Counted from the stretch's first letter, positions 99 to 13,773 are shown. The stretch is DNA of 51,122 nucleotides from an uncultured Candidatus Saccharibacteria bacterium (GCA_964349525.1 CAYGGI010000001.1:1-51122), one strand, 5' to 3'. Numbers and translations: made by a program. Notes: generated from the sequence alone by a model not told the origin.

Positions 99-131
99 CA
101 CAAAAGTGACGAAAAATTCGTCACTTTTGTG
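99..131 (+). terminator. Intrinsic terminator after the tRNA; copy 1 of a repeated palindromic element
   Basis: Perfect 15-bp inverted repeat CACAAAAGTGACGAA / TTCGTCACTTTTGTG around an AAA loop, followed by a T-rich stretch. The GTG that starts the 106..1116 ORF lies inside this hairpin. Confidence 0.75.
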
Positions 132-3991: not shown

Positions 3992-5262
3992 ATTACAAAG
4001 ACTTTTTCCGAGGGAAACGCGTAGTTATTGTAGGGCTCGGTCCTCATGGGGAGATGCTCGCTGATATCAAGTTTCTCCTCAAGCTTGGGGTACAGGTTTC
4101 ATTTTACGATATGCGAAGCGAGTCAAGACTCCAGGGTTTTCTGACGCCTCTCACGGCAGCGGGTTTGACCGACTATACCTTCGGAAAAGTCGATGATGAA
4201 GCACTGGCACAAGCCGATCTCATCATTCTGTCTCCGGAGATCTCGCGAAAATCCCTTTTTTTGAAAAAGGCTGTCAAAGCTGGCGTACGGATAGAATACC
4301 CTGATATCCTTTTTTTAAAATTGGCTCCATCGATTACCCTCATCGGCGTTATGGGTCAATGTGGGAAAAGCACCGTCGCCCACATGCTCTACAAGGTTCT
4401 TAAACAGTCTTTTTCCGAATACGAAGATCAAGGTCTCTACTTTATCGACCCCGATCTTTCCCATGGAGCGCTCACGCATTTGAAGAAAATAAAAGGCGGA
4501 GACGTCGTCTTGGCGCGCATCGCTGAAGACATGATGGGTGAATATTCGAGCGCCCGTGTCAGTCCACATGTTGCGATCATCACTTCTCTGACCTCGCAAG
4601 CTCTCGCCGGCACGAAAAAAGCTTTTGACATTCTCGAACACCAAACATACAACAATTTTGTTGTCGCTCCGGACGCCGTGATTGATGCTATAAAAACAAA
4701 AACTGATTTTGTTACCAAAGCCAAGATGCTTCGGACGCGTGCCGACAACTCCGCCTTGGTTCTCCAAGCCGCCGAGCTCTTTAAGGTTTCTGCTGAAACC
4801 GTCGCGAGCGTACTCGAAGATTTTTCTGGCCTCAAGGGTCATCGAGAGCTTATCAAGAAAATCGGGGGAATCGAGTTCTACAATGATTCTGCAGCCGTCA
4901 CGCCAAAGGCTACTCTCGCGGCTCTACAGGCGTTGTCTGTCGAAAAAAATATTGTTCTCATCCTTGGCGGGGCGTATACGGGCTATGAGTATGGAGAATT
5001 GATCAAAGAAATTCCTTTGCACGCCAAGGTAGTGATCCTCCTGCCAGGAAGCGGCAGTCTCGGTTTTCGCAAGGATTTGGAGGTGCTCTGCGATATCGTA
5101 TTTCTCCAGGCGCCGACCATCGAGGTAGCTCTTACTCTCGCGAAAGAGCAGGCAAAGAAAGGCGACAGGATACTTTTTAGTCCGGCGTGCGAAGCAATCG
5201 GTATCCATATTTCACGGAAGGAGCGAGGAGATAAATTTGTAAAGGCAGTGAGGGCACTGTGA
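3988..5262 (+). CDS. murD: Mur ligase, MurD-like (UDP-N-acetylmuramoylalanine--D-glutamate ligase)
   Basis: N-terminal Rossmann VVIVGLGPHG, P-loop GVMGQCGKSTVAHML, and the HRxE-type segment GLKGHRELI typical of MurD. GTG start overlaps the upstream stop. Confidence 0.8.
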   Translation: MNYKDFFRGKRVVIVGLGPHGEMLADIKFLLKLGVQVSFYDMRSESRLQGFLTPLTAAGLTDYTFGKVDDEALAQADLIILSPEISRKSLFLKKAVKAGVRIEYPDILFLKLAPSITLIGVMGQCGKSTVAHMLYKVLKQSFSEYEDQGLYFIDPDLSHGALTHLKKIKGGDVVLARIAEDMMGEYSSARVSPHVAIITSLTSQALAGTKKAFDILEHQTYNNFVVAPDAVIDAIKTKTDFVTKAKMLRTRADNSALVLQAAELFKVSAETVASVLEDFSGLKGHRELIKKIGGIEFYNDSAAVTPKATLAALQALSVEKNIVLILGGAYTGYEYGELIKEIPLHAKVVILLPGSGSLGFRKDLEVLCDIVFLQAPTIEVALTLAKEQAKKGDRILFSPACEAIGIHISRKERGDKFVKAVRAL

Positions 5263-10783: not shown

Positions 10784-11518
10784 TTACCACAAAAAGAGCG
10801 GTCTGCGAAGGGTAGCCACGGATTTCTGCGCGCGTGTAAACGTGTAGTTTTCCGGGCCAGTTTTTCCGACTTCAAGCCATGATTGTTCGGAAAGAGGTCG
10901 TGTTATATCCGTAATCTGGATAATTCCTTGTCGGACGCCATGCTCATATTCGCCATCAGTGGGCCAAGCGACTGCGTGGGTGTAGTGCAGGGTTCCAGGA
11001 AGAGAGTCTTGATAGTCTACTTGATGGATCAGAAGTATATGATCTCGTTCGTCGTTAATCATTGTTATGATATCTCCCGGTTGAACATCTTTTAAATAAA
11101 TTTCCTCGCTATTTTTCTCATGGGCAAAACATTTGACACTGGCGTTTTCTGCCGGACGAAACTTCGCGCGAAGTTTTCCGATGAAACCAGTTGCGAGAGG
11201 AAAGAAAAGACTTTTCGGGTTTAAGATATGATAGACAAGTCCTGAACAGTCAATGCCGATATTTCCGTCCACCATGAATTTCTTGAGACTAGTGGAATCG
11301 AGTGCGTTTGAGTTTACTTTTTCTTTAGCGGCAACATTTTCTACTTCATCCAGAATATCCTGAGGACTGCCCTTGCCGATCTGCGCGCGGAGCTTCGCCC
11401 GCGCGCGACCCCGACGGTTGTTGTAGTAGGGAACAGCGCAGGTGGCAGAGCCTACGGAGAAACTAAGGTACTTGCTGATGATGGCGAGGTTTTTGTCAGA
11501 AATAGCCTTTGAATTCAT
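10784..11518 (-). CDS. NlpC/P60-family (C40) cysteine peptidase-like cell-wall hydrolase
   Basis: Catalytic-Cys motif IDCSGLVYHIL and downstream GDIITM...DHILLIH. The stop lies 9 nt upstream of the mraY start. Confidence 0.65.
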   Translation of the reverse strand: MNSKAISDKNLAIISKYLSFSVGSATCAVPYYNNRRGRARAKLRAQIGKGSPQDILDEVENVAAKEKVNSNALDSTSLKKFMVDGNIGIDCSGLVYHILNPKSLFFPLATGFIGKLRAKFRPAENASVKCFAHEKNSEEIYLKDVQPGDIITMINDERDHILLIHQVDYQDSLPGTLHYTHAVAWPTDGEYEHGVRQGIIQITDITRPLSEQSWLEVGKTGPENYTFTRAQKSVATLRRPLFLW

Positions 11519-11525
11519 GGTATTT

Positions 11526-11534
11526 AGGATATCA
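11526..11534 (-). promoter_or_regulatory. Extended -10 box TGATATCCT (minus strand), 7 nt upstream of NlpC/P60 ATG 11518
   Basis: Reverse complement of AGGATATCA. Same motif class as the other gene-proximal boxes. Confidence 0.4.
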
Positions 11535-11555
11535 CGATTTCGACCTTTTCTTTGC

Positions 11556-11583
11556 TTGACAAAAAAACTAGGTATGCTATGCT
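11556..11583 (+). promoter_or_regulatory. Sigma-70-like promoter driving the non-coding island
   Basis: TTGACA (11556-11561), 16-nt spacer, TATGCT (11578-11583). No credible ORF lies downstream. Confidence 0.55.
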
Positions 11584-11589
11584 ACTCAT

Positions 11590-11927
11590 CGGTTAGTTGT
11601 TTGAGTCTCGTGCGACGCACAGGCGATGTCGGTAATCAGAGCGGTGTGGGAGCTCCTTTGTCTCCCTGCTTGTCTCCAGAACCGACCCGGCGGAATAGCG
11701 TCCGCACGTGTCAAAAAAGAAAATAGAAGGGTGTTCGCGACCCTATCATTTTCACCTCACACTGTGTCGGTGTGTTGGGGAGATTTTAAGACTGTAGTGC
11801 TTCGGGGTAATCTTGATCGATAGTCCCCGATGACGGTCTGAAAGTGCGGAAGGAGTCTTTTCCTTCAAGATCACGCACATTGCGTTCATGGCGCCGCCGT
11901 TCATTCGGGGGCGCCTTTCCATTTTCC
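11590..11927 (+). ncRNA. Candidate structured non-coding RNA (about 340 nt), class unresolved
   Basis: A G+C-rich island in an AT-rich context with no protein-like ORF on either strand. Nested helices are visible: 11609-11618/11698-11708, 11628-11632/11682-11686, GGGAG/CTCCC 11648-11666, AGGGT/ACCCT 11727-11745, CACAC/GTGTG 11758-11775, TTGGGGA/TCCCCGA 11775-11829 and GTGCG/CGCAC 11844-11877. It ends in a GGCGCC...GGCGCC hairpin (11890-11915) followed by TTTCCATTTTCC. Confidence 0.5.
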
Positions 11928-11946
11928 TAAATATAGAGAAAATTAA

Positions 11947-11973
11947 AAAAGTGACGAAAAATTCGTCACTTTT
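11947..11973. terminator. Copy 2 of the palindromic terminator element (bidirectional; overlaps the stop codon of the ATP-grasp gene)
   Basis: AAAAGTGACGAAAAATTCGTCACTTTT is identical over 27 nt to 102-128. It is flanked by an A-run and a T-run, so it can terminate both strands. Confidence 0.75.
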
Positions 11974-13072
11974 CTGCACCACAGTTTTCCTCTATCTCCT
12001 TTCCCCTCTTATTAAATTTCCCATGAGTCTCCATGATTCCTCTTTCGCTTTGAATACGAAGCAAATCGCTATTTAATTTTGTGTTTTTATAGGAAATTAT
12101 TTTGTAACCGACATTCTCGAGTCCCTGCCCGTCAATCGTCTTGATCTTTTTCGTCATCCTCTGAATAATTTGCGCTCCATCATTTATCTCTACGAGAGGC
12201 GCTGTATTAGGCGTATCTGTCAGTGCAGCGAGATGAGCTTCGAAAGTCGTGATCCCAGGAACACCTTTTCCCCGCGCCTTCGTTTGGAGCTGGGATTCGT
12301 ATGTAGTAGAAGCCGGCTGACGAGCATTTATTTCTATCAAAAAGAGCTTGTCTCTGTGCTCGTCATATATAACATCGATGCCGAAGAGCCCTTTCCAGCC
12401 ATCATCTTGCATTTTTTTACCAATGAGATTAGCAATTTCCGCAAATCTCGCGAGTTGAGCCTCAGTCAAAATGCTGTGAGGCAGACTCCAATCATTTCCT
12501 ATGGTACTAAAAGGATTATCGGTAAAAGGTGGAAGTCCCGTGATTTGGTAGCTCATATTTCCTATGAGAATCCTATCTTTCGCGACCACGATGTTTGCTG
12601 TAAACATGGGACCTTGGATATATTCGGTCACACGCGCTTCGCGATCAGGAAATTTAATTTGAATATCTTTAAGCTCGCCCTCTTTCGTAATTAGAAATGT
12701 TCCATCACCAGTGTGACTATGCGCCCACTGGAGGACGAGAGGAATATTTTTAAAGGTTATATCTTTTGTCTTTGCGATGGAGTGAGGAGGCAAAAGGGAA
12801 GCCAACTCGCCAAGCCATGCGACTTGTGTGATCTTGTTCTCAATCTTTTCCGCGAGTCCCGCGCTGGGGTTTAAAAGTTTCCAACCTTTTTCTTTCGCCA
12901 CTTCCTCTGTCTGAATCGTATTTTTAAAAACGAGAATGCGCGCCCCTCTTTCAATTGAGGAATTTTTAAGTATTTCTAGTGTGTCCTCACCGGTTCCAGA
13001 GACGATAGAGTAGCCCTTGTTTTCTGGCATTCCTTCCGCTCGTTCACGGTCTTTCGTTACATAGATTATCAT
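11966..13072 (-). CDS. ATP-grasp fold ligase, substrate unknown
   Basis: C-terminal ATP-grasp signature GLFGIDVIYDEHRDKLFLIEINARQPAS. It lacks the Ddl HG..GEDG motif. Start set at ATG 13072, which has TGATAGTAT 10 nt upstream; 13099, 13084 and 13030 are alternatives. Confidence 0.7.
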   Translation of the reverse strand: MIIYVTKDRERAEGMPENKGYSIVSGTGEDTLEILKNSSIERGARILVFKNTIQTEEVAKEKGWKLLNPSAGLAEKIENKITQVAWLGELASLLPPHSIAKTKDITFKNIPLVLQWAHSHTGDGTFLITKEGELKDIQIKFPDREARVTEYIQGPMFTANIVVAKDRILIGNMSYQITGLPPFTDNPFSTIGNDWSLPHSILTEAQLARFAEIANLIGKKMQDDGWKGLFGIDVIYDEHRDKLFLIEINARQPASTTYESQLQTKARGKGVPGITTFEAHLAALTDTPNTAPLVEINDGAQIIQRMTKKIKTIDGQGLENVGYKIISYKNTKLNSDLLRIQSERGIMETHGKFNKRGKEIEENCGAEK

Positions 13073-13092
13073 GATAAGGTACATACTATCAT

Positions 13093-13773
13093 ATGCCATA
13101 TTTTTATGTAATTTCCACCCCGATCGGCAATCTCGAAGACATAACCCTTCGCGCCCTTCGTGTGCTCAAGGAAGTCGACCTCGTCCTCTGCGAGGACACG
13201 CGTGTCACGGGAAAGATCTTTTCCCATCACGGAATATCGACGCCAAAGATGAGCTACCATGCGCAGAGCGGTGAAGCAAAAGTAGAAATCATTCTTGATG
13301 AAATTTCACAAGGAAAAAATATTGCTCTCGTGACCGATGCGGGAACTCCCGGCATTTCTGATCCGGGCTCACTCCTCATTTCACAGGTTCGTGCGCAATA
13401 TCCCGATCTCCAGATCATTTCGATTCCCGGAGCTTCGGCTCTTACTGCCGCACTCGCGATCGCCGGTGTGCCGACCCACGAATTTATTTTCCTCGGCTTC
13501 ATGCCGCACAAGAAGGGAAGGGAAACTTTGTTCAAAGAAATTGCTACATCAGAAAGAACGATGGTTTTCTATGAATCCACGCATCGTATCATTAAAACTC
13601 TCGAGTCCCTCGCCGAACATTTGAAAGAAAAAAATAAGAAAGTCACTCTCGTTCGCGAAATTACAAAAATTTATGAAGAAGTCATCCAGGGGACTGCCGA
13701 AGAGGTTCTCGCAACCCTCATATCCATACCTGAAAAGCAAAAAGGAGAATTTGTTGTGATAGTTTCGGAGTAG
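13093..13773 (+). CDS. rsmI: 16S rRNA (cytidine1402-2'-O)-methyltransferase
   Basis: YVISTPIGNLEDITLRALRVLKEVDLVLCEDTR and TDAGTPGISDPG motifs of the tetrapyrrole-methylase-fold RsmI family. Confidence 0.9.
   Translation: MPYFYVISTPIGNLEDITLRALRVLKEVDLVLCEDTRVTGKIFSHHGISTPKMSYHAQSGEAKVEIILDEISQGKNIALVTDAGTPGISDPGSLLISQVRAQYPDLQIISIPGASALTAALAIAGVPTHEFIFLGFMPHKKGRETLFKEIATSERTMVFYESTHRIIKTLESLAEHLKEKNKKVTLVREITKIYEEVIQGTAEEVLATLISIPEKQKGEFVVIVSE

Follow-up and report, generated by a model that had tools for sequence, protein, structure and literature searches.

The stretch of DNA analyzed here (51,122 nt, hereafter the window) corresponds to contig C1 in a genome of 685 kb that is divided among 61 contigs and is 98.7% complete. 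The relatives recovered through the S15 protein of this genome are labelled Candidatus Taylorbacteria, Paceibacteria or Patescibacteria. An intergenic gap of 447 nt (11519-11965) separates two minus-strand ORFs in the window and raises the question of what occupies it. The original prediction described a stand-alone structured RNA that could not be classified. In our analysis there is about an even chance that the gap carries an independently transcribed, plus-strand non-coding RNA of approximately 340 nt, which would be an orphan. The elements on which this reading draws, with their assigned roles as predictions, are as follows.

10784-11518, minus strand: NlpC/P60-like ORF of 244 aa; the gap begins at its start.
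11526-11535, minus strand: putative proximal promoter of the NlpC/P60-like gene, an extended -10 element TGATATCCT read from the sequence 7 nt before the ATG at 11518.
11556-11583, plus strand: sigma-70-type promoter, TTGACA (11556-61), 16-nt spacer and TATGCT (11578-83), with TG upstream of the -10 box; 10/12 consensus matches.
11590-11927, plus strand: proposed primary transcript of about 338 nt (an upper estimate), placed from the promoter and terminator positions.
11590-11712, plus strand: G+C-rich 5' region (59% G+C) with the helix 11609-11618/11698-11708 and three CU-rich motifs.
11713-11757, both strands: mid-unit terminator-like element, made up of an A-tract, a 5-bp hairpin (11728-11744) and a T-rich tract.
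11752-11904, minus strand: antisense ORF of 50 codons (MNGGAMNAMCVILKEK...), probably not a gene, with an SD-like GGAAAGG 9 nt upstream and its start codon inside the GC hairpin.
11758-11889, plus strand: very stable 3' domain of four hairpins, one of which pairs an SD-like GGAAGGAG (11849-11856) with UCCUUC.
11890-11927, plus strand: intrinsic terminator, a GGCGCCGCC/GGGGGCGCC hairpin (11890-11915) followed by the T-rich tail UUUCCAUUUUCC.
11945-11975, both strands: second, bidirectional terminator, the palindromic element AAAAGTGACGAAAAATTCGTCACTTTT, overlapping the stop codon of the ATP-grasp-like gene.
11966-13099, minus strand: ATP-grasp-like ORF of 377 aa; the gap ends at its stop.

The flanking genes are labelled "NlpC/P60" and "ATP-grasp" only from sub-threshold Pfam matches together with motifs in their translations. 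The 244-aa ORF has a DCSG motif and an NlpC/P60 match of 17.2 bits, and the 377-aa ORF has an ExN-type LIEINARQ motif and a faint ATP-grasp match (YheC/D-type) of 12.2 bits. Both proteins are nevertheless conserved throughout the genus (the first in 43 of 45 genomes) and represent divergent families. The G+C content of the unit body is 0.53 and exceeds that of the window (0.45) and of the genome (0.46), which agrees with the enrichment that had been predicted. The approximately 445 nt said to lack a protein-like ORF correspond to 11519-11965, where all six frames contain several stops. At the Rfam gathering threshold, the sole match in the whole window was a tRNA at 1-70.

A consensus promoter faces into the gap on the plus strand. 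The TTGACA-16-TATGCT promoter of the original prediction is present and carries an additional TG just 5' of the second hexamer; from its position, plus-strand transcription would be expected to start near 11590. The wider pattern to which it belongs, CTTGACAA-N11-RTGnTAnnnT, occurs at only three sites in the 685-kb genome. On the opposite strand, the NlpC/P60-like gene had been credited with its own proximal -10 box, and TGATATCCT can be read at this place as an extended -10 promoter with a leaderless-type layout that lacks a Shine-Dalgarno sequence. This arrangement, a -10 box and then the ATG, is shared by the xerC-like genes of relatives, which have no Shine-Dalgarno sequence either. A spacing of 6-7 nt between the -10 box and the ATG recurs in several genes (window 11516-11535 and the xerC-like starts of relatives, e.g., L032 and L069), which suggests that leaderless mRNAs may be common in the lineage of this genome.

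The other end of the unit is marked by two terminators, both present as predicted. The GC hairpin at 11890-11915 is followed by a U-tract on the plus strand, while no T-run follows it on the minus strand. The second terminator belongs to a repeated family: the palindromic hairpin AAAAGTGACGAAAAATTCGTCACTTTT has 16 copies in the genome at up to three mismatches, including window 11945-11975, window 102-128 and 14 others, and these lie mostly in apparent intergenic gaps, where a bidirectional terminator role would be expected. A terminator scan also flagged the element at 11713-11757 on both strands; in the plus-strand fold, its A-tract pairs with its U-tract. Since this element lies inside the unit, the RNA length of 340 nt is an upper estimate. 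Overall, the interval looks like a plus-strand unit with its own promoter and terminator, in keeping with the stand-alone character first proposed for it.

The stability of the fold was compared with that of dinucleotide shuffles. The whole unit on the plus strand gave a z score of -3.67, and none of 100 shuffles folded as well. All of this excess stability is located in 11758-11930, which folds at -69.2 kcal/mol (z -4.49) on the plus strand and at -52.3 kcal/mol (z -2.99) on the reverse strand. The plus-strand fold is 17 kcal/mol more stable than the minus-strand fold, with nine G-U pairs against three. The 5' region (11590-11712) gave z -0.27, and 80 of 200 shuffles were as stable. The 10-bp helix to which attention had been drawn, 11609-11618/11698-11708, is present in the minimum-energy fold, but the domain that contains it is no better than chance. 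The three CU-rich motifs of this 5' region were read from the sequence as GCUCCUUUG, GUCUCCC and GUCUCCAG. In the minimum-energy fold, an apical loop is made up of UCCUUU, whose first C pairs with the G after it; together with the preceding paired C, the loop reads CUCCUUU, which resembles the core of the 16S anti-Shine-Dalgarno sequence, a 7-mer observation made post hoc. The unit was read as a plus-strand transcript because the only good promoter is on this strand, the T-run after the GC hairpin is found only on this strand, and the plus-strand fold is the more stable one. Transcription itself, its strand, the RNA ends and any function are inferred from these features.

The phylogenetic distribution of the unit was analyzed at the level of both sequence and locus. 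BLAST of the body (11585-11935) against the 44 other genomes of the genus returned A-rich noise only, and no match was found by BLAST in phage or plasmid collections or in two scans of metagenome contigs. A single-sequence covariance model of the 3' domain recognized only itself when the 44 other genomes of the genus were searched. When this model was run with filters off on 32 loci with similar units, the best score of 14.2 bits was driven by the terminator, and homology was rejected. The original prediction had staked its structured RNA on conservation of sequence or structure in related genomes, and no homologue was found in the genomes searched. By that standard, its claim of a conserved structured RNA fails, and with no homologue the unit offers neither covariation nor a sign of purifying selection. 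At the locus, three further assemblies from this population show 100% identity and hence provide no polymorphism for a population comparison.

A further 29 genomes of the genus were compared for the neighborhood of the NlpC/P60-like gene. In 17 of them, the gene immediately before it on the same strand is the ATP-grasp-like gene, with gaps of a few to approximately 100 nt, and a divergent gene of about 380 aa adjoins it in 10, this gene being mraY in the one case checked. A non-coding insert at the junction was found in only two relatives, G141 and G144. Its absence from the remaining 27 indicates a species-specific insertion into the ATP-grasp/NlpC-P60 gene pair. The closest relatives, G140, G010, G135 and G021 (XerC identity of 86-94%), have no insert at the junction, and G022, another of the five closest, has no match to the NlpC/P60-like gene at all; none of these five carries an orthologous unit elsewhere either. 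The possibility that the interval is a remnant of the divergent upstream gene of some relatives was rejected, as this gene is mraY and shows no similarity to the interval.

The inserts of G141 and G144 (loci L046 and L044) have the same arrangement as the present one: an ATP-grasp gene, a terminator, an oppositely transcribed body led by a strong promoter, and an NlpC/P60 gene that has a promoter of its own. They differ from it in their length of approximately 650 nt, and their alignment to the insert studied here is confined to the promoter and about 20 nt. These two genomes are not among the closest relatives, with XerC identity of about 60% compared with 86-94% for the insert-free genomes. 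The two inserts are homologous to each other, being 65-73% identical in the 5' 300 nt and the 3' 110 nt. They have no Rfam match (L046 ~750-1500; L044 ~800-1500) and have a common block in frame, LNISKL..GE.VKV. Their terminator stems differ by paired changes.

A model of the locus can be proposed on this basis. A species-specific insertion would split an otherwise contiguous ATP-grasp-like/NlpC-P60-like gene pair and bring in a bidirectional promoter module. On one side of this module, the extended -10 element would drive the NlpC/P60-like gene as a leaderless-type mRNA, and on the other side the strong consensus promoter would drive the plus-strand RNA of about 340 nt. The RNA would end after approximately 165 nt if the internal terminator-like element works, and otherwise at the GC hairpin and its U-tract, behind which the repeated palindromic terminator at 11945-11975 would act as a backstop. 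The transcript would most likely be a non-coding small RNA acting in trans. Neither Hfq nor CsrA was detected in the genome, which makes direct base pairing the most plausible mode of action if the RNA regulates. As a low-confidence guess, the CU-rich loop, which is anti-Shine-Dalgarno-like and reads UCCUUU as folded and CUCCUUU as sequence, might bind the ribosome-binding sites of target mRNAs; such occlusion by CUCCUUU is speculation.

The main rival to the plus-strand non-coding RNA is that the insert is functionless evolutionary debris, in which a recent rearrangement or illegitimate recombination left behind a promoter module, G+C-rich filler and terminators. We consider this possible, though on the unlikely side, and the same applies to its corollary that a transcript exists only through the strength of the promoter while the terminators merely insulate the neighbors. 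A strong promoter on a recent insertion may indeed produce a functionless transcript, and the unit is unique to one species and absent from its five closest relatives, its promoter module is the only part that resembles anything else, and its 5' half is not unusually structured. Units of this kind also come and go at another site, the gap between xerC and rpsO: among 72 species with resolved synteny, this gap holds a unit of 240-1092 nt in 34 and is empty (33-190 nt) in 38. Debris would not be expected, however, to have a 3' half that is far more stable than its shuffles (z -4.49) and asymmetric between the strands, nor to form a tidy unit with one promoter and a dedicated terminator, and a streamlined genome of 685 kb rarely keeps 450 nt of junk.

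It is unlikely that the interval instead encodes one or more very small proteins, either the 50-aa ORF on the minus strand (from 11904 to 11752) or a plus-strand mini-ORF such as the 22-aa ORF with a TTG start at 11658. The start of the 50-aa ORF, an SD-like sequence followed by ATGAAC, resembles the mini-ORF starts (MNxPP...) in the xerC-rpsO units of relatives, and a terminator-like element with a T-run (11744-11728) lies just past the ORF on the minus strand. Nonetheless, neither this ORF nor a 65-aa ORF on the plus strand has a homologue, as searches of 5.8 billion proteins returned self-matches only, and their codon scores fall in the 2nd percentile of real 50-codon gene pieces, that of the 22-aa ORF being much lower. 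The only promoter candidate for the minus strand, TCGTCA-16-TATATT, from which a transcript would start near 11925, is weak (9/12, no TG), and an HMM built from the units of relatives matches neither strand of the interval. The ORF overlaps the strongly promoted antisense RNA convergently, so that the plus-strand RNA could be pictured as its antisense partner, in a layout resembling that of type I toxin-antitoxin pairs. Such a pair would be compatible with the geometry and with the masked start codon, but the predicted peptide is basic and hydrophilic rather than a membrane toxin, has no homologues and scores poorly for codon usage, and this arrangement is not favored.

The resemblance of the promoter module to sequences elsewhere in the genus leads to a further alternative. 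Between the divergent ATG and the end of CTTGACAAAAAAACTAGGTATGCTATGCT, the module shows a colinear alignment (81% over 47 nt, E 1e-6) to modules that flank the xerC-like gene in relatives, and the -35 box lies 36-37 nt from the divergent ATG both here and in the xerC-rpsO units. The xerC-like gene encodes a tyrosine recombinase according to Pfam. Where the gap upstream of rpsO is occupied (among loci L069-L097 and L111-L190), it contains one or two promoter-to-terminator units, whose bodies change very fast. A typical unit consists of the promoter, a 5' (C)AGnTGATC motif, an SD-like sequence with an ATGAAC..CCGCC mini-ORF (MNSPP.., MNNGPP..), a AAAGAAAGGAG block and a terminator. The present unit is similar to these in the CTTGACAA-N11-RTGnTAnnnT promoter and its distance from a divergent leaderless-type start, in its first transcript bases, (A)GTTG(ATC)TTTGA, in ending with a terminator, and in its patchy presence between species. 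It differs in its locus and in a sense strand without the SD and ATGAAC..CCGCC mini-ORF and without AAAGAAAGGAG. The corresponding xerC-rpsO gap of this genome (C20:339-428, ~89 nt) is empty.

Membership of the unit in the xerC-rpsO family was rejected, as only the promoter module aligns. No k-mers of the body are shared with the xerC-rpsO units, the resemblance being loose and confined to the antisense strand, and nhmmer with an HMM of nine such units found no match in this genome. A single-copy RNA gene that moves between sites was also rejected, as a second unit with this promoter type is present on C6 of the same genome and in the closest relatives this promoter precedes ordinary genes and a tRNA. 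The second unit (G000:C6 ~4130-4418, minus strand; L109:630-919) is approximately 250 nt long and contains, besides an SD-like sequence and a terminator, an ORF of 25 aa (MLDIKCRK...); it has no Rfam match and a z score of -0.5 against shuffles. The motif GGCTCAATAAAG upstream of it is common to the G141 and G144 inserts. It is distinctly unlikely that the unit studied here is a relocated copy of a family-wide expression cassette, in which cargo that changes fast (a small RNA or mini-ORF) would lie between a bidirectional promoter module and a terminator, and which would be found beside the xerC-like gene in about half of the related, Taylorbacteria-labelled species, in zero, one or two copies. 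If it were, this would imply that these tiny genomes have a loosely integron-like platform, associated with a recombinase, by which small expression cassettes are moved among a few intergenic sites, and a cassette landing in an operon would rewire that operon, for example by providing a new leaderless promoter for the NlpC/P60-like gene.

As a structured 5' leader of the NlpC/P60-like gene on the minus strand, riboswitch-like or of the c-di-AMP type, the interval had been given a tentative role in the original prediction, but this is very unlikely and close to refuted. Such a role was conceivable in that c-di-AMP riboswitches of the ydaO type occur upstream of cell-wall hydrolase-like genes in other phyla. 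The corresponding Rfam model (ydaO-yuaA, RF00379) found no match in the interval at E<=10 or in the genome at E<=1. Furthermore, the strong terminator at 11975-11945 precedes the interval on the minus strand, a -10 box belonging to the gene itself lies 7 nt before the ATG, no leader of any kind is present in 27 of 29 relatives, and the minus-strand fold is weaker than that of the plus strand.

The least credible reading, in which the interval would contain a divergent representative of one of the universal families RNase P RNA, tmRNA, SRP RNA and 6S RNA, has already been refuted for the first three. A length of about 340 nt and a strong promoter would suit a housekeeping RNA, and neither SRP RNA nor 6S RNA was detected genome-wide, but a universal RNA would be expected in the 44 other genomes of the genus, yet it is absent there. 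A search of 11400-12100 against Rfam on both strands yielded nothing credible at E<=10, the best noise being driven by the terminator (RsaF, 20.9 bits against a cut-off of 60), and no family reached its gathering threshold. The unit thus remained as unclassifiable as it had first appeared. RNase P RNA (RF00010/RF00011) had no match in this region at E<=10 and was found at C7:7624-7981 (122.7 bits), whereas tmRNA (RF00023), for which neither Rfam nor ARAGORN gave a match in the interval, was located at C4:169-580 (83.9 bits), both copies scoring above their cut-offs; ARAGORN detected no tRNA in the interval either. The failure to recognize signatures of RNase P, tmRNA and SRP RNA in the interval is accordingly in line with the presence of the first two on other contigs and with a genome without an SRP RNA match. 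For 6S RNA (RF00013), no match was obtained in the interval (E<=10) or the genome, and the predicted fold has multiple domains with separate hairpins instead of a rod with a central bubble.

A divergent SRP RNA became an attractive candidate once the SRP RNA proved to be missing from the genome. The models of the small and large SRP RNAs (RF00169/RF01854) matched neither the interval nor the genome, RF01854 giving 0 matches in this genome and RF00169 0 in the 31 genomes of the order (this genome and 30 relatives). The Ffh M domain (PF02978) was likewise found in 0 of these 31 genomes, the SRP54 GTPase domain (PF00448) gave only P-loop-level matches (20.7 bits in this genome, 24.6 bits in G004), and a six-frame motif scan of this genome detected no Ffh- or FtsY-like ORF. 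The same searches were positive in 13-14 of 14 model genomes used as controls. As Ffh and FtsY are absent as well, from this genome and its relatives, an SRP RNA would have no partner proteins, and the candidate was rejected; the orphan RNA is not SRP RNA. From these sequence searches, the whole SRP protein-targeting pathway seems to be absent from the genomes searched in this order. The literature search retrieved no paper on SRP loss in such genomes and nothing relevant on CPR non-coding RNAs.

If the plus-strand non-coding RNA is a real regulatory RNA, it would join a very short list of concrete candidates through which small RNAs might regulate genes in CPR/Patescibacteria. To our knowledge, these bacteria lack Hfq and CsrA, and we know of nothing reported on their post-transcriptional control. 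The locus also suggests that a single insertion can split an operon and hand the downstream cell-wall gene its own leaderless promoter. Taken alone, an unconserved, predicted candidate from a single species has limited immediate value, and what is new here is likewise limited to one such candidate of a familiar kind, a promoter-to-terminator orphan RNA. The variable xerC-rpsO cassettes and the apparent absence of the SRP pathway may matter more than the orphan RNA itself.

Among known systems, the unit can be compared with two groups of RNAs. It is similar to OLE, ROOL, GOLLD and raiA in being richer in G+C than its surroundings, in its many hairpins, and in having its own promoter and terminator; however, conservation and covariation in many species are what define those RNAs, whereas the unit described here has no relatives and no Rfam match. 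The second group comprises orphan, species-specific sRNA genes, such as those of the Staphylococcus aureus Rsa RNAs, which pair with Shine-Dalgarno regions through C-rich loops and independently of Hfq. Compared with these, the present RNA would be longer than most at about 340 nt, is unconserved, is predicted from sequence, and belongs to an ultra-small CPR (Taylorbacteria-like) host, and we know of no sRNA regulation characterized in such genomes. It resembles them in being a stand-alone intergenic unit with a strong promoter, an intrinsic terminator and stable hairpins, and in combining CU-rich motifs, including one that is located in an apical loop, with a genome without Hfq.
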